From contig CAYYRJ010000010.1 in NCBI GenBank assembly GCA_964474085.1, forward strand, positions 12,606-76,605: 64,000 bases of DNA, given 5' to 3'. Source of the DNA: an uncultured Planctomycetales bacterium (lineage in GTDB: Bacteria; Omnitrophota; Gorgyraeia; Zapsychrales; JANLHA01). This document shows positions 4,814-60,271 of this stretch, piece by piece (position 1 is the first letter of the stretch; each line of letters begins with the position of its first letter). The position numbers and the translations under genes are program-made. The notes under the pieces are model-generated. The model did no database searches. It saw only the letters and a program-made list of their open reading frames with translations, and was not told the origin of the DNA.

Positions 4814-4887
4814 AAAATTATTCAAAAAATTATTAAGGGGTTCAGGTAAATTGTAATCCTGAAGAGGTTTTTTTGAGATGGTCGGGC

Positions 4888-4928
4888 CGCCATCTGATTT
4901 TAGTGATCAGATGGCGTTTATTTTTTTA
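4888..4928 (+). terminator. rho-independent terminator
   Basis: 11-bp perfect stem cgccatctgat / atcagatggcg with a 7-nt loop, followed by tttattttttt. Confidence 0.6.
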
Positions 4929-4944
4929 CGATAGGAGCAGACCA

Positions 4945-7206
4945 ATGAAAGTAACGTTAAGACTTATTCTTTCTTTAATCTCGATTGTGGCCGTTGTGGC
5001 TTTTTCATTTTCATTTTGGCAGGCCCGACAAGAAGAAGATAGGCTCAAGACGGAATTAGAAAAAAGAGCGAGTTTTGTCGCGGATAGTTTGCGGATTTCT
5101 GTCGAGCCGATGCTGGCAACCGACGGGAACAGTCAATATTTACAGCGGCTCGTGGACCGATTTTCTAATCGTGAAAAACTTGTGGGGATTGATATTCACG
5201 ATGTCAGAGAGAACTTGATCGTTAATTCAAAAGGGATCAAGCCCCAGCTGGAAGCAGACCCCCGAGTTTTATCGCAGGCGATTGAGGAAGTTGAGCGGAC
5301 AGGCAATGAGCACGGCAGCTCTGTTACTTTAGAGGGCACAAATTTATATGCTTATACTGTTCCGATCGTGACTGGAGAAAAGACATCACATGTTTTGACG
5401 CTCTTTTATGATGTGGATTATATCCGCGATCGTGTTAAGAGGCTTTTGATCAATAATTTCTGGAGAGCATTGACTCAGGCTCTTTTGATCGCTTTGACGA
5501 CGTTTATTATTATTTTTTATAACGTCATGGCTCCGATCAGAAAAACGACAATGTGGATCAAAAAGATCCGTAAAGGCGAGCCATCGCGTCCTCTGGATGC
5601 CAGAGAACAGCTTTTATTGGGCCCTTTGGCCTTGGAAATCACTCGAATGGCCAAGAGTTTGGACGTGGCCAGAGCCGCAGCAGATGAGGAAGCTCGTTTA
5701 CGATATTCATCGGAATCCCGCTGGACGCCGCAGCGTTTGAAAGAATTTATCCGTTTAAAATTGGAAGACCGGCCGCTTTTTGTGGTTTCAAATCGTGAAC
5801 CATATATGCATATCAAAAATGGCAAAGACATCGAATGTATTGTTCCAGCCAGCGGTTTAGTTACCGCCCTTGAACCGGTGCTCAATGCGTGCGGCGGGAC
5901 ATGGATCGCACAAGGAAGCGGCAATGCTGATCGTGAAACGGTCGATAAAAATGACAGGATCATGGTCCCTCCGGAAGAACCCAAATACACTTTACGTCGT
6001 GTCTGGGTTGAGAAGGATTTGGAAGAAGGTTTTTATTCCGGATTTTCTAATGAGGGATTGTGGCCTTTGTGCCATATCGCGCATACACGGCCGATCTTCA
6101 GGGCCAAGGATTGGGAGGATTATAAAACGGTAAATCAAAAATTTGCCCATGCTGTTTCCCAAGAGCTCGAAGGTGTTTCAAATCCTTTTGTTCTGATTCA
6201 GGACTATCATTTTGCATTACTCCCGCGTTTGATCAAGCAGTTAAAACCTGATGCAAAGATTGCAATATTTTGGCACATCCCGTGGCCCAATCCCGAATCT
6301 TTTGGGATTTGTCCGTGGAGAAAAGAGCTATTAGACGGAATGTTAGGTGCAGATATCATAGGTTTTCACACGCAATTTCATTGCAATAATTTTATTGAAT
6401 CCGTTGACCGATTTTTGGAGTCGCGGATTGATTATGAACATTTTTCTATATATCGTGAAGGCCATACCAGCCTGGTCAAACCTTTTCCGATCAGTATCAA
6501 TTTTGATTCTGCGAATGGAGATTCAGCGAAGGAAGCGGTGAACAAAGCAGAGCTTTTGAAAAAGTACGGAATTCAAGCTCAATATCTGGGGGTTGGAGTT
6601 GACCGTTTGGATTACACGAAAGGTATTTTGGAAAGGTTCCGGGCCATCGAGAATCTTCTTGACAATCATTCGTCTTTCCGGGGGAAATTTACTTTCGTTG
6701 AACTGGGAGCGCCCAGCCGGACCATGATCCCGAAGTATAAAGAGTTCATCGATGAAATTACCAAAGAGGTCGAGCGGATCAACGCGAAGTTTAAGAAAAA
6801 CAACTGGCAACCGATTCTTTTTTTGATGAAACATCATAGCCATAAAGAGATCCTCCCCTTTTATCAGGCCGCGGATGTTTGCCTGGTGACCTCTTTGCAT
6901 GACGGGATGAACTTGGTCGCCAAGGAATTCATTTCGTCGCGGGCTGATGAACGTGGGGTTTTGGTTTTAAGCCAATTTACGGGGGCGGCAAGAGAGTTGC
7001 AGGACGCTTTGATCATTAATCCCTATGATGTCGTCGAAACCGCGCGCGCAATCAAGTCGGCTTTGGATATGAAGCCGGAAGAACAAAAAGATCGTATGAA
7101 ACGGATGCGCGAAACGGTCCAAAGCAATAACATTTACCGCTGGGCTGGAGAATTAGTCGAGCAATTGACCCATCTGAGGACTGAAAGCGCTGAGAGGGGA
7201 GTTTAA
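4945..7206 (+). CDS. otsA: membrane-anchored sensor-HAMP-trehalose-6-phosphate synthase fusion (GT20 OtsA catalytic domain)
   Basis: C-terminal ~470 aa is a clear GT20 domain (LWPLCHI..., [16 protein letters not shown]). The N-terminus has TM1 (res 5-28), a ~150-aa extracytoplasmic region, TM2 and an amphipathic HAMP-like linker. AGGAG RBS at 4933 precedes the ATG at 4945. Confidence 0.8.
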
Positions 7207-7210
7207 TAAA

Positions 7211-8308
7211 ATGTCGAATTACCTTGATTCATTCTTAAGCTTCACTATTTTTCAAAATAAGGTGCAGGATTACATTGTTTCAATATTGATATTTTTAATA
7301 TCAATTATTGGCTTATCAATCGTTAAAAGGTTTGTCATAAAACATTTGAAAGTGCGGGCAGAAAAAACAGTTTCTGACTTTGATGATTTGATCGTCAGGT
7401 TGATTTCACAAATTGGCTGGCCTGTGTTCGTGGTCCTTTCCGTGTATATGGCGGGCACTTCGTTAATTCTCTTGGAATCCATCAGGCCTTTCATCAAATA
7501 TGCGCTTGTTTTTGTTGTGACAATCCGGACGATATTACTTCTGCAGGAAATTATTCAATACGCGGTGAATAAAACTTTGATTCAGCGGATCGGCGGAGAA
7601 AATCAATCATCAAAAGCGATGATCAATAGTGTGGTATGGATTGTCAAGTGGGGGATGTGGTTATTGGGAGGGATTTTTATCCTCGATAATTTAGGGGTTA
7701 ATATTACGTCTTTAGTCGCGGGTATCGGGATAGGAGGGATCGCAGTTGCTATGGCGTCACAGGCGATACTAGGGGATGCGTTTAGTGCTTTGTCGATTTA
7801 TCTGGATAAGCCTTTTGAGATCGGAGATTTTATTATCGTCGATGATTGTATGGGGACGGTTGAGTACATTGGGGTCAAAACAACACGCTTACGCAGTCTC
7901 TCCGGGGAACAATTAGTTTTCTCAAATTCAGACCTAACGAAGAGCCGTGTCAAGAATTATAAGCGCATGGAAACGCGTCGCATCGCTTTTAAGGTCGGGA
8001 TTATTTACCAGACACCATTAGAAAAAGTTGAAAGAATCCCGCAAATCATCCGTGATATTTTAGAAAATGCCGGAGTAAGAACTGACCGTGTCCACTTCCA
8101 GAGTTTTGGCGATTCATCTTTGATCTATGAAGCTGTCTATTACGTTTTAAGCGCAGATTATAATGTCTATATGGATAAACAGCAGGACATCAATTTTGCG
8201 ATCATGCGGCAATTCGAGAAAGAAGGGATCGAGTTTGCCTACCCGACTCAAACGCTTTATCTAAAAAGTACCTCTTTAGTGAAGGAAGAAAATGTCCGGT
8301 ATTCATAA
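7211..8308 (+). CDS. MscS-family small-conductance mechanosensitive channel
   Basis: Three N-terminal TM helices plus a conserved MscS core (ITSLVAGIGIGGIAVAMASQAILGDAFSALSIYLDKPFEIGDFI). RBS gagggga. Start lies 5 nt after the otsA stop. Confidence 0.85.
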   Translation: MSNYLDSFLSFTIFQNKVQDYIVSILIFLISIIGLSIVKRFVIKHLKVRAEKTVSDFDDLIVRLISQIGWPVFVVLSVYMAGTSLILLESIRPFIKYALVFVVTIRTILLLQEIIQYAVNKTLIQRIGGENQSSKAMINSVVWIVKWGMWLLGGIFILDNLGVNITSLVAGIGIGGIAVAMASQAILGDAFSALSIYLDKPFEIGDFIIVDDCMGTVEYIGVKTTRLRSLSGEQLVFSNSDLTKSRVKNYKRMETRRIAFKVGIIYQTPLEKVERIPQIIRDILENAGVRTDRVHFQSFGDSSLIYEAVYYVLSADYNVYMDKQQDINFAIMRQFEKEGIEFAYPTQTLYLKSTSLVKEENVRYS

Positions 8309-42874: not shown

Positions 42875-43363
42875 ATGATGGAACAAATTCAATATCAGAT
42901 AAAATCAAAAGTCGGGCCGCTGTATCTGGTCGCTTCAAGACAAGGTTTGCGTGGGGTATTTTTTTGCAAGCAGAACGTCAAGGCAGTCCAACAACTTAAT
43001 CTCTTAAATCCCGTCGAGAAAGTCTTAGCGCAGGCTTCTGAGCAACTCGAAGAATATTTTGCAGGCAAGCGTCAGCAATTTGAACTCAACATTGATTTTG
43101 CAGGAACAGCTTTTCAAAAAAAAGTATGGCAAGCTTTGTCAAAAATTCCTTTTGGCCAAACTGTGTCTTATCGGGATATCGCCCAAAAAATTAAAAATCC
43201 TAAAGCGGTTCGTGCCGTAGGATCCGCCAATGGCAAAAATCCATTTTGCATTATCATTCCCTGTCACCGCGTCATTGCCGCCAACGGGACGCTTGGCGGT
43301 TATTCCGGTGGCCTTGCGATCAAGCGAAAGCTTCTAAAGCTCGAAGGCGGTCAATTTAAATAA
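42875..43363 (+). CDS. ogt: methylated-DNA--protein-cysteine methyltransferase
   Basis: IPCHRVI active site, 162 aa. Confidence 0.85.
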   Translation: MMEQIQYQIKSKVGPLYLVASRQGLRGVFFCKQNVKAVQQLNLLNPVEKVLAQASEQLEEYFAGKRQQFELNIDFAGTAFQKKVWQALSKIPFGQTVSYRDIAQKIKNPKAVRAVGSANGKNPFCIIIPCHRVIAANGTLGGYSGGLAIKRKLLKLEGGQFK

Positions 43364-43373
43364 GATGATGTTT

Positions 43374-43461
43374 GAGTTTAGCTGATTTGGAAATCCTTTT
43401 TAGGCGAATTGCGCCATAGAGGCGCGAAACAATTGAGCCTAAAAGGATTTTCAAATCGGCA
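43374..43461. repeat. ~90-bp palindromic repeat element, copy A
   Basis: gtttagctgatttgg...aggcgaattgcgccatagaggcgcgaaacaattgagcc...tcaaatcggc. The outer stem is ~22 bp. The whole element is approximately the reverse complement of copy B. Confidence 0.6.
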
Positions 43462-43498
43462 CAGATACAAATTTCTATATGGCATTAATTAAAAAGTT

Positions 43499-44866
43499 AT
43501 GTCGACTAAAATAAACAAGCCCGGCGGTATTTGGGAAATGGTTTTGATTGCGCTTCCTATGGTCGTTTCCTTTGCGTGCGACACGGTCATGACCTTTACC
43601 GACAGGTTGTTTCTTTCGCGCGTTGGGCCGCTTCATATGAACGCGGCGATGGCAGGCGGGATTTCGTATTTTTTTATGATGTCATTTTTTTTAGGGTTGA
43701 TCGGTTACGTTACGGCATTGACCGCACAATATCTTGGCGCCGGCCAAAAATCAAAGTGCAGCAAAGTTGTGACACAGGCTTTTTTTATTATTCTTATCGC
43801 GTATCCATTTTTGCTTTTAATTCGGTACCCTGCACTTAAGATTATTTCGGGGCTGGGCGTTTCCCCTGAGCAGTTTGCTTTGCAAAAAGAATATTTTGAC
43901 CTTTTGATGTTAGGGACGGTTTTTAGTTTGGGCCGGCACGCCTTAAGCAGTTTTTTCTCAGGCATCGGGCGCACTCGGCAAGTGATGACAGCGTCGCTTC
44001 TTGCGATGGTTGTGAATTGTTTTTTAAATTATTGTCTTATTTTTGGAAATTTGGGGTTTCCAAAGCTTGGCATCAAAGGCGCGGCTTTGGGGACGATACT
44101 CGCGTCAGCGAGCGCGTTTGTGTTTTTGTTGGTCGCTTATTTTAGGAAAGAGAATAGAAAAGAATTTGCGCTGACCGACTCGTTTGGGTTTGACCGCATC
44201 CTCATGAAAAAGTTGCTTGTCTTTGGTTACCCGGCGGGCGTGGAATTTGCCCTTAATATTTTGGCTTTTTCGGGAATTATTTTTCTTTTTCACGCCCAAG
44301 GAGCTGTCACAGCGACGGCTCTGACCATTGTTTTTAATTGGGACATGGTGACTTTTGTTCCTTTGATTGGCATTGAGGTCGGCGTCACAAGTCTCGTTGG
44401 CCGTTACAAAGGTGCAGGCGAGCTTAAAATTGCCCGACGTGCCGTACGCTCAGGCGTGACTTTAGGGTTGTTTTATTCGTGCGTGATGCTTGTGATTTTT
44501 ATTCTTTTTCCCGACGGGCTTGTTAACTTTTTTAGGCCGGATATCGCAAATGATATTTTTAGCGCGGCCTATCCGTTGGCTGTCTCAATGATAAAACTGG
44601 TGGCGGTTTATGTCATGGCCGAAGTGCTTTTGATTGTTTTTACCGGCGCTTTGCGCGGGGCAGGCGATACGTTTTGGGCGATGGTCATCTCCGTGAGCAT
44701 TCACTGGACGATACTTATTGTTTTGTATTTTGCTTTAAACTTTTTGCACGTTAGCGCCTATCAGGGGTGGGTGATTTTAGTCGTTATTTTTACGGCGATG
44801 GCGTTTTTGCCGTATGCACGCTACCGGACCGGCGCGTGGAAGAATATTAAAGTTATTGAAACTTAA
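43499..44866 (+). CDS. MATE-family multidrug efflux transporter
   Basis: 12 TM helices with a typical MATE N-terminus. Confidence 0.85.
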   Translation: MSTKINKPGGIWEMVLIALPMVVSFACDTVMTFTDRLFLSRVGPLHMNAAMAGGISYFFMMSFFLGLIGYVTALTAQYLGAGQKSKCSKVVTQAFFIILIAYPFLLLIRYPALKIISGLGVSPEQFALQKEYFDLLMLGTVFSLGRHALSSFFSGIGRTRQVMTASLLAMVVNCFLNYCLIFGNLGFPKLGIKGAALGTILASASAFVFLLVAYFRKENRKEFALTDSFGFDRILMKKLLVFGYPAGVEFALNILAFSGIIFLFHAQGAVTATALTIVFNWDMVTFVPLIGIEVGVTSLVGRYKGAGELKIARRAVRSGVTLGLFYSCVMLVIFILFPDGLVNFFRPDIANDIFSAAYPLAVSMIKLVAVYVMAEVLLIVFTGALRGAGDTFWAMVISVSIHWTILIVLYFALNFLHVSAYQGWVILVVIFTAMAFLPYARYRTGAWKNIKVIET

Positions 44867-46170
44867 ACGTTTTTGGCGACGAAGGCTTCGCTGATTTTGT
44901 TGCGGCGCAACTTGCGAACCGTGACCTGCAGACCATGGGTGTTGATGGTTTCTCCGGCTTTAAGCGGGGTAGGGCTTTGCCGTTCAAACCAGTCAGCCAA
45001 TTTTAAATTTGGCTCATCCGGCCAATTGACGCCTAAGGTTTTGGCAAGCGTGGACATGGCCACAGCGCCGCCGACTAGCCATTGATTGCCGTAAGCTAAA
45101 ATATGATGCGGCAGGCGGTCAAATTCATCTTCAATATCTCCGACGAGCTCTTCAATGATATCCTCTTGGGTCACCATCCCGATGATGTTGCTTTCGGCAT
45201 TTTCAACCAGACCAATATGCAGTTTTTCCTGGATCATCCGTTCCAAAACTTTTGAAATCGGGGTATTGTCGTTAAATTTAGGCAGGGGCCGGATAATACC
45301 TTTGATTGTGGGATCTTCCGGATTGATCCTAAGAGCGACAATAATGTCCTTAAAGTTGATGTAGCCTTGCACGGTTTGTAAGTCATTTCCGACGGCGCAC
45401 ACCGGAAAACGGGTATGCATATCCATATGCGCGCGCAAAAGGGCGTCCGAAAGCGTGCTGTTTTGCGGAATAATGCAGATGTCTGTCGAAGGGATCATGA
45501 TGTCTTTAATCGGCCGCAGGGAAAGTTGCGCGGCGGACAAAACGATTTTTTCCTGCTGTGCATCGATAAGCCGTGTCGTGCGTGCGACTGAAAGTGCGGC
45601 GGTTAATTCATGCAAACTACTTTCTGTATCAGAAGATGACGCCGGTGTCCGGGTTTTTCGGCTGATAAAGCGCATTGAGGCTTTGACAATATTTTCGATC
45701 GTTGAAATGATGGGATAAGCGATCAGTGTAAAATATTTCATGATCGTCGATAATTTGAGGATGACCCATTCGTTGTGTTTGAGAGCAAAGGTTTTGGGAA
45801 TAAGTTCGGCAAAAATGATCGTAAAAATACTCAAAGGAATAATCAGGACAACCAGACTTGCAACTTCGGAAAGCTGTGCCGACAAATTGAAATATTTTTG
45901 AAAATACGGATTAAGAAGTGTCGTGATGCCGGCTCCGCCTATCGCTGCAGCAATAGCCCCCACAAGCGTGATTCCAAGCTGCACGACGGCTAAGCTGGCT
46001 TCCATGCGGTCTTTCATAAATAACGCTTCAGCGGCGCCTGGTTTTTTGATTTGGACCAGATAGGTCAGTTTTGTCCGGGTGATGGAGGCTAAAGCCATTT
46101 CATAAGCGGCAAAAACGGCATTGAGGATAATCATCGTAAAAATAATAATGATTTCGGCTGTAAATTCCAT
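44863..46170 (-). CDS. CNNM/CorC/TlyC-family transporter (DUF21 + CBS pair + CorC_HlyC)
   Basis: 435 aa with 4 TM helices, a CBS pair and a C-terminal CorC domain. Confidence 0.85.
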   Translation of the reverse strand: MEFTAEIIIIFTMIILNAVFAAYEMALASITRTKLTYLVQIKKPGAAEALFMKDRMEASLAVVQLGITLVGAIAAAIGGAGITTLLNPYFQKYFNLSAQLSEVASLVVLIIPLSIFTIIFAELIPKTFALKHNEWVILKLSTIMKYFTLIAYPIISTIENIVKASMRFISRKTRTPASSSDTESSLHELTAALSVARTTRLIDAQQEKIVLSAAQLSLRPIKDIMIPSTDICIIPQNSTLSDALLRAHMDMHTRFPVCAVGNDLQTVQGYINFKDIIVALRINPEDPTIKGIIRPLPKFNDNTPISKVLERMIQEKLHIGLVENAESNIIGMVTQEDIIEELVGDIEDEFDRLPHHILAYGNQWLVGGAVAMSTLAKTLGVNWPDEPNLKLADWFERQSPTPLKAGETINTHGLQVTVRKLRRNKISEAFVAKNV

Positions 46171-46195
46171 TTAACGCTCCTGTTGAAAAACACGA

Positions 46196-46291
46196 GTGAA
46201 GTTTAGCTGATTTAGTTGAGCCCTTTTTCGGCTCAATTGTTTGGCGCCTCTATGGCGCTATTCGCCTTAAAAAGGTCTCAACTAAATCAGC
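46196..46291. repeat. ~95-bp palindromic repeat element, copy B
   Basis: gtgaagtttagctgatttagttgag...cggctcaattgtttggcgcctctatggcgctattcgcc...ctcaactaaatcagc. 16-bp perfect outer stem. Confidence 0.6.
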
Positions 46292-46388
46292 AGGTAATAA
46301 GACGAATTACACATGAAATTCTAAATGTTGGTTCATTGTATCAAAACAACTCGCGCAAGTTAGAAGTTTTTTGTGCTAAAATGCGCCA

Positions 46389-47324
46389 ATGTTAACTGTC
46401 CTTCCACAGATATTTTTAGAACGCCTTGTAAAAATTGTCCCCGAAGAAAATTTTTCCGGCGTGGTGTCTTCTTTTTCGGCGCAGGGGCTAGTAAGTGTGC
46501 GGATTAACACGCTTAAAGTTACGTTAGAGGATATTGTTAGTGAACTTAACACGTTGAAAATTTCTTTTACACAAATCCCGTGGTACAAAGACGCTCTGGT
46601 TCTGCAGGGCTTAGGTGCCAAAGAATACGGTGAATTGGAGTTGGTTAAGAGGGCGTGCGTTTATCGCCAAAGTCTTTCGAGCATGCTGCCGGTTTTGGTC
46701 TTAGATCCAAAGCCAGGTGAGCGGATTTTGGATTTTTGCGCAGCGCCGGGAAGTAAGACGACCCAGATGGCGTCATTAATGAATAATCAAGGCGAGATTG
46801 TGGCTGTTGAGGCGATACGGCCACGTTTTTATAAGCTTAAAAGCGTTTGTGAGCTTTTGGGGGCGCACAATGTTTCGTTTAAATTAACCGATGCCCGGCG
46901 TTTTCGCAGTGAAGAATTGTTTGATAAAATTCTCGTCGATGCGCCTTGCAGCAGTGAAAGCCGTTTTAAGGCGGATGACCCAAAGTCGGTTGGTTATTGG
47001 AGTCTTCGCAAGATTAAGGAAATGGCGCACAAACAAAAGGGACTGCTTTTGTCGGCGAGTCGTTTTTTAAAGCCGGGCGGTGTTTTGGTGTATTCGACCT
47101 GCACGTTTGCGCCCGAGGAAAATGAAAGTGTCGTCGATTGGGTTTTGAGAAAGACACAAGGGATGTTGCAGGTGTCACCCGCGCAAGTGACCGGCGTTAA
47201 GTCTTATCCGGCTTTGGCCAGTTGGGAGCAAAGAGAATTTAGCGTGCAGGGTGAAAATCTTTTGCGCGTTTTGCCGGATGGGATGATGGAAGGTTTTTTT
47301 GTGGCTAAGTTTGTCAAACAATAA
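46389..47324 (+). CDS. RsmB/RsmF (NOL1/NOP2/Sun) family rRNA m5C methyltransferase
   Basis: AAPGSKT SAM motif and DAPCSSE catalytic motif. Confidence 0.8.
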   Translation: MLTVLPQIFLERLVKIVPEENFSGVVSSFSAQGLVSVRINTLKVTLEDIVSELNTLKISFTQIPWYKDALVLQGLGAKEYGELELVKRACVYRQSLSSMLPVLVLDPKPGERILDFCAAPGSKTTQMASLMNNQGEIVAVEAIRPRFYKLKSVCELLGAHNVSFKLTDARRFRSEELFDKILVDAPCSSESRFKADDPKSVGYWSLRKIKEMAHKQKGLLLSASRFLKPGGVLVYSTCTFAPEENESVVDWVLRKTQGMLQVSPAQVTGVKSYPALASWEQREFSVQGENLLRVLPDGMMEGFFVAKFVKQ

Positions 47325-47712: not shown

Positions 47713-47723
47713 TTTATCCCAAA

Positions 47724-47781
47724 TTTTGCATTACAACACAGTGCGCGACGATCCGTCGCGCACAAAAAAGTGAATGCAAAA
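47724..47781. other. 58-bp nested palindrome (inner stem gtgcgcgacg/cgtcgcgcac, outer ttttgcatt/aatgcaaaa)
   Basis: Read directly in the 92-bp gap before the CPBP gene. No clear U-tract on either strand. Confidence 0.4.
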
Positions 47782-47804
47782 TTCGGGTTTATGAGAATAT
47801 TTTT

Positions 47805-53143: not shown

Positions 53144-53210
53144 GGAACGAGAAGAAGTTTTTTCTATTAAAGCAACTGCTTTGTTGCTGATTCCAGCATC
53201 CCTTTATATT

Positions 53211-56200
53211 ATGCCCATGACAAAAGAATTAAACGAGATTTTTACTTTACCGCAAGTCCGTGTTGTTGAAGCCTCCGCAGGCTCCGGCAAAACCTATTGC
53301 CTGGCGCGCCGTTATGTGCAGCTGTTGCTCCATCCGCGTTTCTCCGGCGACAAAATCCTTTTGCGCAACATTCTTGCGATCACTTTTACGAATAAAGCCT
53401 CTTATGCGATGAAGGGCCGGATTTTGGAATTTTTAAAAAAAATCGCTTTGGGCGTTATGCCTCCGACGGAGGTTAAGGAAATATTAACGCCGATTGATTT
53501 GTCGCTGGAGGATGCTAAGCCTGTCGCGGGCCGTATTATGGACGAACTGATTTGCCGGTATAATTTTTTTCAGGTACAAACGATCGATAGTTTTATTAAT
53601 GCACTTTTGTCCGGGTGTGCGTTTAAAATTGGACTTTCAGCAGGATTTAAAATCAAACGCAATTATCTCGAATATTTAGAACACAGTTTTGACCGCATGA
53701 TCGACCAATCTGCCGACGATAAAGCAATTTTTGAGATTTTGTCGCGGTTTTTGTACCAGTATCTTTTTCTTGAAAACAAGACCGGTTGGTTTCCCAAAAA
53801 AGACATGTTGGGCCTTCTTTCCGCACTTTATAGCCAGAGCAATACGTATGGGCGCGATTTTTTGCCTTTTGGAAAAGGTGGGGATGATCTTTATCAGCGC
53901 AAAAAAGAAATTCTTTCTCTGTTGCGGGACTTGCAGACGTCTTTGCCGCAAGGGACACACAAGAGGTTTGCCGAAAGTTTAAAGGATTTTTTGGCCCAAT
54001 ATCAGGACGGATTTGATTTTGACAGAATTTCTGAATATTTGAGCTGGGAAAATGTTCCGGTCACCAAAGGCGTTATTGTTTCTCAAGAGCTGGACCGTCT
54101 TTGGAAAAAAATCCAAAAGCAGCTTATCTTTTTAAGTGAACGCGAAGCGTACAGTTTGTTTGATCCCTACATTGACGTGTTTAATCAGGTTAATGATGAT
54201 TTTCATCTTCAGGCTGCGAAAGACGATGTGCTGTTTTTGCCGGAACTTAACCGGCGGGCGCGTGAACTTTTTGACGAAGGCAAAGTTACTGTGGAGGAAT
54301 TGTATTATCGGCTGGCGAATCGTTTTCAGCATTATTTGCTCGATGAATTTCAAGACACGAGTCGTTTGCAGTGGCAAAATTTGGAAATGATGATTGAAGA
54401 GGCGCTTTCGGTGGGCGGCACTTTATTTTATGTCGGCGATAAAAAGCAGGCGATTTATGGGTTTCGCGGCGGGGAGGTCAAACTTTTTGATGAGATTAAA
54501 CAGCGCTTTGGCGCGTTTAATGTCAGGGTTGAGGCGCTTTCAACCAATTATCGCAGCCAAAAAGCGATCGTTGATCTTAATAATCAGGTTTTTTCGCCGG
54601 AAAATCTGCGGCGTTTTATTGCGCAATTGCAAGAAGAAAAAAGTGAAGCCGCCCCATTGGGCGCCATGGACATCAGGGAAGTTGAAAGTATTTTTCATGG
54701 CGCAGAGCAAAAAGTTTCCGACGGCCATGACGGCGGGTATGTCCAAATCGAGTACGTAGAGCCGACGGGAAAAGGCGAAATCAATGAACAAATCCGTCTG
54801 CGGCTGTTGGCTGTGATTGCGGACTTAAAAAAGCGTTTTAGCTTAAGCGAGATTGCGATTTTGACACGAAGTAATTTGGAAGTTGAACAAATTACCAGCT
54901 GGCTGATGCAAAATGGGATTTTTGTTGAGTCGGAGCGGACCCTTAATATCAAAGAAAATCCGCTTATTGTGGAGCTGATCGCGTATTTGAAATTTTTGGA
55001 TTCCCCGATTGATAATTTGAGTTTTGCAAAATTTTTAAGCGGAGAAATTTTTCATAAAGTTTCCGGTTTGCCGCAACAGGAGATACATAGTTTTTTATTC
55101 AGTCATCGGCCTGCGCTGGATGCCAAAAAAGATTTTTATCTCTATCGGGCCTTTCGGCAGCAGTATCCTTTTCTCTGGGACAAAATCTTTGATGAATTCT
55201 TCAAAAATGTCGGACTGTTTGCGCTTTATGAGTTAAGTACCAGCCTTTTTCGACGGCTTGAGGTTTATGCTAATTTTCCCGACGAGCATGGATTTTTTAT
55301 GCGTTTTTTAGAACTTGTTAAAGAAAAGGAAGAGGAATTTAGCGATTTGAATTCTTTTTTGGAGCATTTTGAATTTCTCGAAAATGATGAGCTTTTTGTC
55401 AATGTCGTCAATAGCGATGCGATCAAGATTTTGACGACGCACAAATCCAAGGGATTGGAATTTCCGGTTGTTATCATCCCGTTTTTGGCAATGAAAGTGC
55501 ACGCGGCAAGTTCTGGCGGTTTAGGACAGCAAAGTTATATTGTTGATGCCAGTGAAGATCATTTGAAACTGCTGCGGATCAAAAAGAAATATTTGAGTTT
55601 TTCTGAGAAGTTGGCGCAAGTCGAGCGCGTCCAAAAAGTGCAGTCGTTTATTTCGGAACTTAACAATATTTATGTTGCACTAACGCGTGCCGAACATGAG
55701 CTGTATGCTTTTATTCCGCAAAAAATCGGGTCCAGCACAAATATTCTTAAGTTTTTGATTCCTCCGCAGTGTCTTAAAATAAATCATCCGCAAGAGCATG
55801 TGCAGGCAAAAGAGCGCATCCGAGAAAACCGTCTAAGCTTGCCGGTTTTAGGAGATCATAACTGGATTGATTTTTTGAAAGAAGAATTTGTTGACGCTGC
55901 GAGTGTTTTTCGTCGCAAAGAGCTTCAGCGCGGCGTTGTCCTGCACGATTTTTTATCACGGATCAAAAATTTATATAAAGTTGATAAAGCTCAGGCGATT
56001 AATTCTGCTTTGCAGCAATGCAAGCTTCAATATCCGCAGCAGGCCGATTGGCATTCTTTTGAGAGCGATATCAAGCGTATTTTTGAGTCTCGTGATTTAG
56101 AGCCTTTTTTTGTGATTTCTGATGGGGAAGTTTTTGTTGAAAAAAATTTGGTCAATTCTGCCGGTTTTACGCGGCGTATTGACCGGCTTATTGTTAAGCC

Positions 56201-56366: not shown

Positions 56367-59144
56367 ATGGGAAAAATCAAGACGCTGGATTTTGGCGAAA
56401 ATTTTATTAAAGAACTTGTCGATTACCTTGGCGCGAATTATTCGTCGCTGGGCAGGGACTTGAGTCGTTTGGCGGTTGTTTTTGGCGGAAAGCGCCCGAG
56501 CCTTTTTGTCAAACGGGAACTTCAAGAGAAATTAGGGGCAAGTTTTTATCCGCCGCAATTTTTTTCGATGGATGAGCTCGTCAGCTATTTGGCCTGCAAA
56601 CAAGAAATTTTTCACTCCGGGCAGGATTTGGAACAGCATTATTCCTTATACCAGTTAACAAAAACTCATGCGCCCAAAATTTTAAAAGGCCGGGAGGCTT
56701 TTGCGCAGTTTTTGCCGTGGGCCCGCGAAATTTTAAGTTTTATCGACCATGTTGACTTGGAAGATGTTCCCGACGATAAACTGCGCAATATTCAGGCCAA
56801 CGCGCAAATCGGTTATCCGGTGCCGGACGATGTGAACGAACTTTTAGAAAGCATTGTTCTTTTGCGTGGTGCGTATCATAAGCTTATGCACAAGACAAAA
56901 AATTTTTCGCGCGGGTTTCTTTACCGAATTGCCTCGCAGTCTGCCGCAGAGAGTGACCTTTCAGAATTTGATCAGATTATTTTTTGCAATTTCTTCCATT
57001 TTCACCACTGCGAAGCGAAGTTGGTCAAAAGTCTTTATGGCCGCGGTTTGGCGTCTTTTATTTTTCAGGGAGAACAAGAGCTTTGGCCAACTCTCAAACG
57101 GGCCGCAAATCTTTTAGGCGAGCCGATCAGCGAAAAGAAAACTGCGACAACGCCGAAGTTCGAACTTAAGCTTTACTCTGCCTTCGACGGGCATTCGCAA
57201 GTAGCTTGTGTCCGTGAAATTTTAAAGAAAATACCGCATCTTGACCAAACGGTCATTGTCTTGCCGGATCCTAATCATATTATTCCGCTGTTGTCTGAAA
57301 TCAATCCCTTGGTCAAAGAATTTAACATCTCGATGGGGTATCCCTTAAAGCGCAGCTCATTGTATTCGCTGTTGGATTTTATTTTTAAAGCGCAACTTTC
57401 GCGGGACCAGAATGGTTATTATACGCGTGATTTTTTGCGCGTTTTGCGCCATCCCTTGATGAAAAATCTGGATTTTGGAGACGGGGCCGTTGTCTGCAGG
57501 GTTTTGATTCACAAGATCGAAGAAATGTTGACCGGACTGACGCCCGGGGCGCTGACGGGTCATCTTTTTCTTGAGCCTTTAGAATTGTTAGATTTGGAAG
57601 AAATTTATTTGCAAACAGAGCAAACGCTTCTGGGGATGGATATTAAGTTAGAACGCAGCCGCCTGCGTGATATTTTGTCGGTGATGATGCAAACCGCTTT
57701 CGGTCAATGGGAAAGTTTTAATAATTTTGCGCAGTTTTCCGTATGTCTTGACGGTTTGTTGACGTTAATGCTTGAGAAAAGTTTTTTGCGCGCCTATCCG
57801 CTTAATTTAAAGATCGCCGAAAAAATGATTGTCCTTAAGGAAACGATGGAAAGTGTCGGGTTTTGTCGCGAGGTTTTTTCGAAAGAGGATATTTTTAGGA
57901 TTTTTGCCTCTCAAATGGACCGCGAGATTGTTGCCTTTATCGGTTCGCCTCTGAAGGGTCTGCAAATTTTAGGTCTGTTTGAAACGCGGGCGTTGTGTTT
58001 TGAAAACGTGATTGTTTTAGACGCCAATGAAGGCGTTTTGCCCAAACTCAATGTGTACGAGCCTTTGATTCCCCGTGAGGTGATGTTAAGTTTAGGGCTT
58101 GACCGTTTAGAGCAGGAGGAGGAAATTCAGCGTTACCAATTTATGCGGCTTATTTCGTCGGCGAAAGAAGTGCACTTAGTTTACGAGGAGAATGCCAAAA
58201 AAGAAAGAAGTCGTTTTGTTGAAGAGCTTGTCTGGGAAAAGCAAAGGAATAAGGGTGCGCTCGATGCCGTTGCGGTCATTTCTCCAAGCTTTAGCGCCAA
58301 GGTTCTGCCGCGCAAGAATGAAGTTGTCAAGACGCAGGAGATGATTAATTTCTTGAGAAGTTACCGGTATTCGGCATCGAGTCTTAATACATATCTTCGA
58401 AGCCCGCTTGAATTTTATTACAGCCATGTTCTGGGTTTGCGCGAAAAGGAAGATTTGCTCGACGAGCCGGAAAACCGGCAAGTCGGTGTTTTTGTCCATG
58501 GTTTGCTCGAGGAAACGTTTAAGAATTTTATTGGTAAAAAGCCGATTATCGATGAAAAGTTCAAAATGTATTTTCGCAAAGCGTTAGATGAGCGGTTTAA
58601 CAAAAGTTTTGGCAAAGGGCATCAGTCAGACGCTTTTTTGCTGCGAAAAGTCCTCGATGCGCGGCTTGATCGTTTTCTCGACGCGCAAGTCGAAGATTTT
58701 GCCCACGTTAAACAGATTCTTTATATAGAGAAGAAGTTTGAAGATCAGATTGCTTTATCCTGCGGGGTGATGAATTTTGTTTATCGGGTTGACCGGGTCG
58801 ATGAGTTGGAAGATGGGACGGTGATGATTTTAGATTATAAGACTGGCAGTGTCGACCCGATGCCTAAGGCTATCGAAAAGATTGAGGCACTTGAGCTTTC
58901 GCGCGAGAACATTCGCGATGAGGTTGTCTCGTTTCAGATTCCGTTGTACTTTCATTATCTAGATCAAGCTTTTAAGGGAAAAAATATTAATGCGGCGTAC
59001 TATAATTTGCGTACGCTGCAGATAAGCAAGTTTATTGATACCAAAATGACCTTTGACTATGAGCGGATCAACGCTGCTTTTTTGCGTCCCTTAGATTTTA
59101 TTATGACGGAGATTTTGGATATTCAAACTCCATTTCAAGAATAA
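56367..59144 (+). CDS. AddB-like PD-(D/E)xK nuclease subunit (no Walker A, no Cys cluster)
   Basis: Start abuts the AddA-like stop (taaATG). C-terminal VMILDYKTGS motif. Confidence 0.65.
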   Translation: MGKIKTLDFGENFIKELVDYLGANYSSLGRDLSRLAVVFGGKRPSLFVKRELQEKLGASFYPPQFFSMDELVSYLACKQEIFHSGQDLEQHYSLYQLTKTHAPKILKGREAFAQFLPWAREILSFIDHVDLEDVPDDKLRNIQANAQIGYPVPDDVNELLESIVLLRGAYHKLMHKTKNFSRGFLYRIASQSAAESDLSEFDQIIFCNFFHFHHCEAKLVKSLYGRGLASFIFQGEQELWPTLKRAANLLGEPISEKKTATTPKFELKLYSAFDGHSQVACVREILKKIPHLDQTVIVLPDPNHIIPLLSEINPLVKEFNISMGYPLKRSSLYSLLDFIFKAQLSRDQNGYYTRDFLRVLRHPLMKNLDFGDGAVVCRVLIHKIEEMLTGLTPGALTGHLFLEPLELLDLEEIYLQTEQTLLGMDIKLERSRLRDILSVMMQTAFGQWESFNNFAQFSVCLDGLLTLMLEKSFLRAYPLNLKIAEKMIVLKETMESVGFCREVFSKEDIFRIFASQMDREIVAFIGSPLKGLQILGLFETRALCFENVIVLDANEGVLPKLNVYEPLIPREVMLSLGLDRLEQEEEIQRYQFMRLISSAKEVHLVYEENAKKERSRFVEELVWEKQRNKGALDAVAVISPSFSAKVLPRKNEVVKTQEMINFLRSYRYSASSLNTYLRSPLEFYYSHVLGLREKEDLLDEPENRQVGVFVHGLLEETFKNFIGKKPIIDEKFKMYFRKALDERFNKSFGKGHQSDAFLLRKVLDARLDRFLDAQVEDFAHVKQILYIEKKFEDQIALSCGVMNFVYRVDRVDELEDGTVMILDYKTGSVDPMPKAIEKIEALELSRENIRDEVVSFQIPLYFHYLDQAFKGKNINAAYYNLRTLQISKFIDTKMTFDYERINAAFLRPLDFIMTEILDIQTPFQE

Positions 59145-60228: not shown

Positions 60229-60271
60229 AGGTAAAAAAGCCCTTTATTCTCAAAAGAGTAAAGGGCTTTTT
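60229..60271. terminator. bidirectional rho-independent terminator between convergent genes
   Basis: aaaaaa-agccctttat...gagtaaagggc-ttttt, with A- and T-runs on both sides. Confidence 0.5.

Follow-up and report, generated by a model that had tools for sequence, protein, structure and literature searches.

The ogt–rsmB locus and its two palindromic elements

The window analyzed here, a 64,000-nt stretch of contig CAYYRJ010000010.1 from an uncultured bacterium of the phylum Omnitrophota (assembly GCA_964474085.1), contains two copies of a structured intergenic element, designated A and B, on either side of a gene pair for a MATE transporter and a CNNM/CBS/CorC protein. The genes and the parts of both copies are compiled in Table 1. 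Of the 135 nt from the stop codon of ogt (43363) to the start of the MATE gene (43499), 122 belong to copy A, and copy B takes up 131 of the 218 nt of the divergent spacer between CNNM and the methyltransferase gene rsmB, with its end 7 nt from the CNNM ribosome-binding site (CTCCT, 46177-46181). It is very probable that the element is a previously undescribed MITE (miniature inverted-repeat transposable element), which is dispersed in a few uncultured Omnitrophota, and that A and B do not constitute a paired control or recombination system.

A preliminary description of this DNA had called the MATE and CNNM genes and placed a hairpin of about 90 bp at each site. Both gene calls hold, and the two hairpins are documented by repeat search, folding and an exact count of their common core. 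The repeat search of the window revealed a 55-nt inverted match (43390-43444 versus 46225-46279) with 87% complementarity, one palindrome per site (arms 43381-43411/43430-43460 in copy A and 46206-46228/46269-46291 in copy B) and a 14-nt direct repeat, AGTTTAGCTGATTT, present at both 43375 and 46200. The center of both palindromes is a 37-nt core, GGCTCAATTGTTTSGCGCCTCTATGGCGCWATTCGCC, with exactly two occurrences in the window against an expectation of zero (100 shuffles), namely, on the minus strand of copy A (43403-43439) and on the plus strand of copy B (46230-46266). Copy A folds into a hairpin of -43.9 kcal/mol on the plus strand (z -8.2), and copy B into hairpins of -47.3 kcal/mol on the plus (z -7.1) and -44.5 kcal/mol on the minus strand (z -8.4). 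An unfiltered run of a covariance model over all 64 kb scored the two copies at 89 and 88.5 bits and provided no third one, the next hit being an unrelated hairpin with 16.7 bits. Neither copy has any coding capacity, since all six frames contain stops or just open stretches of 12-41 codons.

Both copies were placed by alignment with the full-length canonical copies at loci L073, L010 and L009 (the row of L020 was disregarded), with which they align end to end, including their decayed terminal inverted repeats (TIRs). The hairpins seen initially are thus real, but the complete element is longer and extends with its TIRs over ~43362-43485 and ~46189-46319. In this alignment the "left-type" end and a short spacer are located on the same plus-strand side in both copies; the core of copy A has the canonical orientation, whereas that of copy B is inverted relative to its outer parts. 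The proposal that the copies share their left end and carry the core in opposite orientation is accordingly correct, as documented by the 14-nt direct match and the opposite core strands. The notion that A is the reverse complement of B applies to the palindromic center and fails for the asymmetric outer parts, which have the same plus-strand orientation.

Table 1. Genes and element parts at the ogt–rsmB locus, in window coordinates
Feature	Position	Strand	Remarks
ogt	42875-43363	+	
Copy A (putative MITE), whole element	43362-43485	+	~124 bp; canonical layout; from alignment and family architecture
Copy A, left TIR, decayed	43362-43379	+	AAGATGATGTTTGAGTTT; 12/18 match to consensus AACGCGATGTGCAAGTTT; includes the final two bases of the stop codon of ogt
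Copy A, left hairpin arm	43381-43402	+	from repeat search and folding
Copy A, 37-nt conserved core	43403-43439		reads GGCGAATTGCGCCATAGAGGCGCGAAACAATTGAGCC on the plus strand
Copy A, right arm	43440-43460	+	pairs with left arm; two G.U wobbles on the plus strand
Copy A, right TIR, decayed	43467-43485	+	ACAAATTTCTATATGGCAT; consensus AAAACTTGCACACGGCGT; differences mostly C-to-T / G-to-A transitions
MatE (MATE transporter)	43499-44866	+	
CNNM/CBS/CorC	44863-46170	-	
Copy B (putative MITE), whole element	46189-46319	+	~131 bp; outer parts oriented as in A, center inverted
Copy B, left TIR, decayed	46189-46204	+	AACACGAGTGAAGTTT; from alignment
Copy B, left arm	46206-46228	+	23 nt, 96% complementary
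Copy B, 37-nt core	46230-46266	-	GGCGAATAGCGCC...GAGCC in minus-strand reading; inverted with respect to the outer ends
Copy B, right arm	46269-46291	+	from repeat search
Copy B, right TIR, decayed	46304-46319	+	GAATTACACATGAAAT; 12-nt spacer between arm and TIR
RsmB/F methyltransferase (rsmB)	46389-47324	+	

Distribution of the element in Omnitrophota

A scan of 185,579 species-representative genomes with the core pattern TTGTTTNGCGCCTCTATGGCGC (21 specified bases, exact matches only) retrieved 76 matches on 74 loci, all of them in seven metagenome-assembled genomes (MAGs) of Omnitrophota, some of which are labelled 'uncultured Planctomycetales'. The existence of further copies, for which a search had been suggested, is thereby established. 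The matches are distributed among CAZWOH (33), CAYNSM (12), JANPFV (12), CAZNNZ (11), JACKFI (5), JAYRHV (2) and JADLGJ (1), corresponding to 5-33 per genome in the well-sampled ones, and each genome harbors its own subfamily. Many copies are located at contig ends, as expected of a repeat that breaks assemblies. A degenerate core pattern detected six additional copies of the same architecture in metagenome contigs of the Joint Genome Institute (JGI) and none in viral contigs, and an unfiltered covariance model built from 54 diverse copies added just two diverged ones in the 560 kb of loci. With its consensus, ends and covariance model, the family can be masked and annotated in Omnitrophota MAGs, whose assemblies are broken by the copies.

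Gene context was scored with a crude caller of open reading frames (ORFs). Almost every copy is intergenic, at a distance of no more than tens of nucleotides from either neighbor and mostly nearer to the upstream stop codon; 52 lie between co-directional, four between convergent and six between divergent genes. The strand that reads GGCGAAT corresponds to the sense strand in 31 and to the antisense strand in 21 of the 52 co-directional cases, and the ten downstream genes examined belong to ten unrelated Pfam families, with RmuC, PNP, chorismate synthase, PPK2, PanB, SulP and PurU among them. Neighboring copies in opposite orientation within 1-3 kb are found in the window (A and B) and at L007 and L010.

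No paper dealing with MITEs or with repeats between genes of Omnitrophota turned up in our literature search, and MAGs of this kind were outside the scope of a large MITE census. The element hence represents a new MITE family in a phylum without cultured members and, as far as this search could establish, without described MITEs, if the assignment substantiated below is correct.

Anatomy of the intact element and evidence for mobility

The intact element is non-coding and measures 120-143 bp from TIR to TIR. It is composed of nested parts, namely, TIRs of about 17 bp, an inverted-repeat arm of 20-25 bp on each side and an asymmetric, GC-rich apical core of 37 nt, which is laid out as GGC, internal-loop strands of 5 and 11 nt, a 5-bp GCGCC stem and a 5-nt loop. 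Copies from JANPFV carry an extra 24-nt bulge on one side. In the genomes with young subfamilies (JANPFV, CAZWOH) the homology extends about 20-45 nt beyond the arms, and the extended alignment of their copies defines the TIRs as ACGCGATGTGCAAGTT at one end and AACTTGCACACGGCGT at the other. Across JANPFV, CAZWOH and metagenome copies, ACGCGATGTGCAAGTT and the reverse complement of ACGCCGTGTGCAAGTT are identical at 14 of 16 positions; the terminal repeat of the family can also be written as ACGCSRTGTGCAAGTT, with an inverted copy at the other end.

Short AT-rich target-site duplications (TSDs) of 5-7 bp directly abut these ends (AAAATA, TAAATTA, TTATTA, TCATTA, TATTTT, AAACAA, TTAAAA and TAAAGT). 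A systematic scan showed that 13 of 21 TIR-bounded candidates share a word of at least 5 nt within 9 nt outside each end, compared with an expectation of 2.7 and a maximum of 9 in 2000 shuffled pairings. Mobility is furthermore indicated by a filled site at L024 (7391-7483), whose orthologous position in L010 (~7776-7787) is empty and contains neither the palindrome nor a half-arm. Orthologous sites elsewhere showed one truncated copy, one decayed copy and one copy replaced by another element. The element thus corresponds to the definition of MITEs used here (PMC10969869 section 2.1; PMC3184786): it is far below the limit of 500 bp and also below the usual 200 bp, it lacks a transposase ORF, its TIRs are present in young copies and decayed but recognizable in those of the window, the young copies are flanked by direct repeats, and its many intergenic copies differ in presence between related genomes. 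The initial proposal of a REP/MITE-like mobile repeat (REP, repetitive extragenic palindrome) is therefore supported in its second part by the TIRs and TSDs, and abandoned in its first.

The combination of TIRs and TSDs suggests mobilization in trans by a transposase of the DDE type (cut-and-paste or copy-paste), which would stagger its cuts in AT-rich intergenic DNA by 5-7 bp. Ends that start with AC and duplications of this size are listed for the IS982 family, which is a lead and not a test. After insertion, the TIRs and duplications decay while the central hairpin and the core persist.

Several observations weigh against this assignment. Neither the 560 kb of loci nor the window yielded an autonomous insertion sequence (IS) with these TIRs, and no lone TIR pair at a spacing of 600-3500 bp was detected in the 560 kb of loci; both the transposase family and the mobilization in trans are accordingly what we infer from the ends of the element. 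Some old copies (e.g., L017/L079/L077 and L007/L047) have no TIR and barely intergenic room for one; either the hairpin-core module moves or survives alone, or a TIR scaffold, which transports other cargo as well, has captured it. The TIRs of the two window copies match the consensus only to about 65-70%, and neither copy is flanked by a recognizable TSD. Finally, plain cut-and-paste transposition leaves unexplained that the core stays intact at orthologous loci with coding flanks of just 70-80% identity, at which the TIRs decay, and that G.T/G.U wobbles of the arms are unequally distributed between the strands (100 on the GGCGAAT-reading strand versus 28 on the other; strand-symmetric scoring).

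The lack of a TSD at A and B is expected for old insertions, given that the direct repeats of MITEs wane with time (PMC10969869). With the TSD missing and the TIR match weak, family membership of the two copies rests on the central module, the alignment and the orthologous copies, which characterize A and B, at the level of sequence comparison, as old members of the family with decayed ends.

Two short elements, at L010 (1975-2075) and L068 (1231-1341), exhibit the same TIRs and duplications of 5-6 bp around a different interior without the 37-nt core; the interior of the former is a GTCATTGCGAG-type palindrome. The TIR scaffold thus carries several kinds of cargo.

In-place inversion of the center

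The orientation of the core relative to its flanks has changed in 8 of 12 groups of orthologous copies, as scored on consensus assemblies. Between CAYNSM and CAZWOH, whose flanks are 83-94% identical, three of seven orthologs are flipped, which is near random. Among the twelve paralogous copies of JANPFV, the 24-nt bulge is on one side of the core in eight and on the other side in four (L025, L037, L048 and L063); L037 and L048 are canonical if they are scored by the two slightly different TIRs, and this conflict between the two yardsticks is indicative of inversions at more than one nested level. The inverted part reaches the TIR region in some cases (L029/L058) and comprises only the core and the inner arm ends in others, such as copy B of the window.

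The unit that inverts is the 37-nt center of each element and not the segment between two elements, and an in-place flip of the asymmetric center accounts for the common left end of A and B with inverted cores. The junctions of copy B (TTTTT-C-GGCTC...TTCGCC-TT-AAAAAGG versus canonical CCTTTTT-AA-GGCGAAT...GAGCC-G-AAAAAGG) fit an inversion whose breakpoints fall into the T/A runs within the inner arms. The center may be flipped by exchange, or by template switching during replication, between the closely spaced inverted repeats of the element itself, and the nested palindrome would explain why inversion in place has recurred; the flips themselves are seen directly in the orthologs. A dedicated recombinase would not be required for this, and the differences of the arms from locus to locus argue against one.

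The situation is reminiscent of invertons, in which an asymmetric segment between inverted repeats likewise occurs in both orientations at the same locus, here as a comparison between orthologs. It differs from them by the small size of the inverted segment (about 40 bp), the lack of a recognizable promoter, the locus-specific flanking repeats, which argue against a site-specific enzyme, and the lack of any apparent linked recombinase. The family provides a natural experiment, with a core that outlives the transposon ends, compensatory arms and a center that repeated in-place inversion has left in nearly random orientation between genomes diverged by about 10%.

Conservation of the core and covariation of the arms

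All copies share the same core between arms of 20-25 nt, which are very different between copies and paired within each. Covariation was scored on a model-based alignment of 72 copies, which is fitted to the structure and therefore biased towards pairing. Standard pairs account for 97.9% of its cells, compared with 75.6% in shuffles and 33-53% after displacement of the 3' partners by 1-3 columns; changes on both sides occur in each of the 19 arm pairs, with 421 double-change cells versus 96 in shuffles. In an unfitted, ungapped alignment compensatory changes are still present in 18 of 27 pairs. The pairs within the core hardly vary and are hence uninformative about its structure. Variation of the core is minimal, even at the 16 positions left free by the search pattern, but this invariance is inflated, since the copies were found by an exact 21-base match: only one ortholog is intact in the five comparisons free of this bias, the others being decayed, truncated, replaced or empty. 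A genome-specific core variant, CAAATGAG, is present at orthologous sites of JANPFV and JADLGJ, and such variants fit turnover or gene conversion as well as selection.

The strand bias of the wobbles recurs in each of the 11 arm clusters and amounts to 13:0 in copies with unique arms. It is 52:10 where the GGCGAAT strand corresponds to the mRNA sense and 28:13 where it is antisense. This polarity is tied to the element and not to the neighboring genes, and it points to a single-stranded phase of either RNA or single-stranded DNA (ssDNA). Such a phase is not predicted by the plain cut-and-paste model.

A possible though rather unlikely reading is that the hairpin and the 37-nt core represent a functional single-stranded module that is kept by selection, likeliest at the RNA level, for example as a hairpin for protein binding or processing or as the structured small RNA considered in the preliminary description, with the MITE as its vehicle or origin; it overlaps with the MITE explanation rather than competing with it. 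The near-invariant core in copies with decaying TIRs, its persistence next to diverged orthologous flanks, the arm pairing maintained by compensatory change and the wobble bias, which is stronger in the mRNA sense, are all in accordance with selection on a module. The orientation of the core relative to the genes is, however, near random and flips between close relatives, which disfavors an orientation-dependent RNA function in operon transcripts. Moreover, the invariance is partly a matter of ascertainment, with one of five unbiased orthologs intact, the genome-specific variants are explicable by turnover or gene conversion, correction within the palindrome could keep the arms paired without selection, and neither a promoter or terminator consensus nor an Rfam match was found. 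We regard as even less likely the specific version in which the core is an RNA or ssDNA structure read by a conserved trans-acting factor, selected at its loci and toggled in orientation by arm-mediated inversion. If this were true, a mobile element would have seeded a genome-wide set of orientation-switchable structured intergenic sites.

Alternative explanations

It is very improbable that the copies are REP palindromes or REPINs, mobilized as ssDNA by a REP-associated tyrosine transposase (RAYT) or an IS200/IS605-like HUH (Y1) transposase. The similarities comprise intergenic palindromes near the 3' ends of genes, often just past the stop codon, a strand-specific folding signature, long vertical persistence and structure-preserving evolution. 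The small GC-rich core hairpin also resembles the type bound by Y1 transposases. A REP assignment is contradicted by the TIRs and TSDs, neither of which is made by HUH elements. REPs are GC-rich, 21-65 bp long, present in hundreds of copies and devoid of TIRs and TSDs (PMC3184786, PMC2817692), whereas the Omnitrophota element spans 120-143 bp and occurs in tens of copies, with 1-33 exact cores per genome. In addition, copies in opposite orientation within 1-3 kb show that their orientation does not follow the direction of replication.

The idea that A and B form a functional pair, either as recombination sites for the 2.8-kb MATE–CNNM segment or as twin riboswitch-like leader regulators, is hardly credible. 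It draws on the mutually inverted cores, on the fact that in both copies the adjacent transporter gene has the GGCGAAT...AAACAATTGAGCC strand as its sense strand, and on the presence of just two copies in 64 kb. Against it stand the location of the element beside dozens of unrelated genes in both orientations, the lack of an Rfam hit and the comparison with four syntenic loci of relatives (L002, L003, L004 and L005). L003, whose MATE protein is 85% identical, harbors one copy after ogt and one upstream of CNNM despite a 3.9-kb gene for 1303 aa between MATE and CNNM. L002 (MATE 89% identical) carries the copy after ogt with an oppositely oriented core and with a right arm that an insertion of about 320 bp has split; this contig stops before the CNNM side, so that one of the two sites could be examined. 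L004 and L005 (MATE 77% identical) possess MATE without any copy of the element. The bracket is hence not a conserved unit, and the orientation of the core relative to MATE is not conserved either. The order and orientation of MATE and CNNM are unchanged in L003 and L072, and where gene content differs between relatives (giant ORF present, CNNM absent) the breakpoints do not coincide with the elements. An inversion or excision of the 2.8-kb segment bracketed by the copies, as envisaged in the preliminary description, is accordingly not borne out, and the copies are two of dozens. For the annotation of the two transporter genes, a defined repeat family replaces the reading as paired regulators or as a recombination bracket.

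The remaining candidates can be dismissed briefly. Twin riboswitches or 5'-leaders would require a fixed orientation and a coherent set of genes; a riboswitch-type regulon is ruled out by the gene context of the copies, with their 31:21 orientation, flipped orthologs (L002 opposite at the same site) and unrelated downstream families. Rfam 15 at gathering thresholds reported nothing at A or B and only nhaA-I elsewhere in the window, and permissive E-value scans of the element and three loci returned only generic hairpins (miRNA-precursor or leader) far below gathering scores, so that the proposed covariance check of the core did not yield any family. An intrinsic terminator or sigma-70 promoter is rejected, as neither copy contains a consensus for either and no U-tract follows the stems. 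Insertion of the core into pre-existing palindromes is at odds with the empty site of L010, which has no palindrome or half-arm, and with the lack of a population of core-less long hairpins in the window. Integron attC-like or HUH/REP-like sites are dismissed because of the TIRs and TSDs and because the conserved part is apical, not basal. A tRNA-derived core was rejected, as ARAGORN found no tRNA in the window, and so was a K-turn or sarcin-ricin motif, in which the position of the key G.A pair is a U in the core (by eye).

Comparison with known systems

Correia elements of Neisseria (CREE/NEMIS) are characterized by a TA duplication, 26-bp TIRs and an IHF site in the core. Like the Omnitrophota element they are non-coding MITEs of about 100-155 bp with TIRs around a conserved core, reside in many copies in intergenic regions near genes and differ in presence between related genomes (PMC2649163, PMC10969869). 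They are co-transcribed as long hairpins that can be cut by RNase III (PMC2649163, PMC10969869). The Omnitrophota element is distinguished by its AT-rich duplication of 5-7 bp, shorter TIRs of about 17 bp, a conserved GC-rich apical stem-loop of 37 nt and arms between TIR and core that vary by compensatory change; it lacks sequence similarity to Correia elements and belongs to another phylum.

Enterobacterial repetitive intergenic consensus sequences (ERIC/IRU, RU-1) resemble it as imperfect palindromes of about 127 bp that occur in either orientation in transcribed intergenic DNA (PMC10969869 section 4.1; PMC2759123). Their sequence is highly conserved across species, and they can alter the stability of flanking mRNAs (PMC10969869 section 4.1; PMC2759123). 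ERIC is conserved over the whole element, whereas conservation of the Omnitrophota element is restricted to the core and the inner arm ends, and the sequences are unrelated. To our knowledge, in-place inversion of the center has not been reported for ERIC.

Nezha and other IS-derived MITEs of cyanobacteria share TIRs, direct repeats, very stable predicted hairpins and a mobility that is deduced from filled and empty orthologous sites (PMC3184786). The difference is that Nezha has its TIRs and direct repeats in common with the known ISNpu3, whereas no parent IS was found for the Omnitrophota element in the loci searched.

Possible effects on MATE and CNNM

The MATE gene is probably co-transcribed with the upstream genes, given that it starts only 135 nt after ogt and that the corresponding genes are contiguous in L004; copy A would then form a hairpin of about -44 kcal/mol in the intercistronic ogt–MATE transcript. 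Any promoter upstream of CNNM would be separated from its ribosome-binding site by copy B, which would thus be part of the CNNM leader. Correia and ERIC hairpins change mRNA stability via RNase III or RNase E (PMC10969869 section 4.1; PMC2649163). By analogy, an incidental effect of the hairpins on the expression of neighboring genes is plausible, and any influence on MATE and CNNM might consist in a local change of RNA stability or processing. If the wobble bias reflects an RNA function, strong hairpins in many operons of a streamlined genome could shape their neighbors, including MATE and CNNM.

Further observations on the locus and the window

The MATE protein is identically encoded on a contig of GCA_020049755.1, and its homologs are mostly labelled Omnitrophota or Omnitrophica. 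The gene content from ogt to rsmB varies between relatives, with TerC in L004 and without CNNM in L004 and L005. An ORF of 1233-1303 aa without Pfam match is located between MATE and CNNM/rsmB in L002 (7381-11082), L003 (7336-11247) and L005 (1737-5636). It is absent from the window, where MATE and CNNM overlap tail to tail by 4 nt (44863-44866). The insertion of about 320 bp in the copy-A ortholog of L002 (5656-5975) is equipped with inverted repeats of its own, CCCCTCTTTTTTAAAGAGGGG...CCCCCTCTTTAAAAAAGAGGGGGG, and the arm continues with its end, CCAAATCAGCAGG, at 5979-5991; the insertion resembles another small mobile element that has entered the first one.

The alignments of L007, L025, L026 and L067 to the window all end at ~59114-59143, which represents a synteny break or a deletion. 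Past this position, the relatives possess paralogous genes with one element copy in front of each, an arrangement missing from the window. The copy of L025 is situated opposite window positions 53149-53254; since that relative also contains an extra gene there, the site is not a clean empty one.

Another intergenic palindromic family, with arms such as CTGAGATGTCATGGTGCCCCG...CCCGGGACACCATGACATCCCAG and GTCATTGCGAGGAGC...GCTCCTCGCAATGAC, was recognized at L047 (1418-1561), L067 (4660-4850) and L072 (540-690), and one of its sites holds the element with the 37-nt core in three other genomes. A 2.2-kb run of masked N next to an element copy in a CAZWOH contig (L058, 2324-4524) gave rise to spurious inverted-repeat hits and conceals the underlying sequence.

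Three other structures were noted in the window. The nhaA-I RNA (Na+/Li+ riboswitch class) at 4838-4895 on the plus strand matches the full model with 40.4 bits, compared with a gathering score of 37. At 47718-47787, a nested hairpin, CCCAAATTTTGCATT...GTGCGCGACGATCCGTCGCGCAC...AATGCAAAATTCGGG, occupies the spacer before an Rce1-like/TPR gene (47805); its outer stem around an inner GC hairpin resembles the MITE center, but the sequence is unrelated and reaches 14.7 bits with the MITE model. A near-perfect 17-bp hairpin at 60234-60271, with an A-run on one side and a T-run on the other (AAAAAGCCCTTTATTCT / AGAGTAAAGGGCTTTTT), resembles an intrinsic terminator for both directions.

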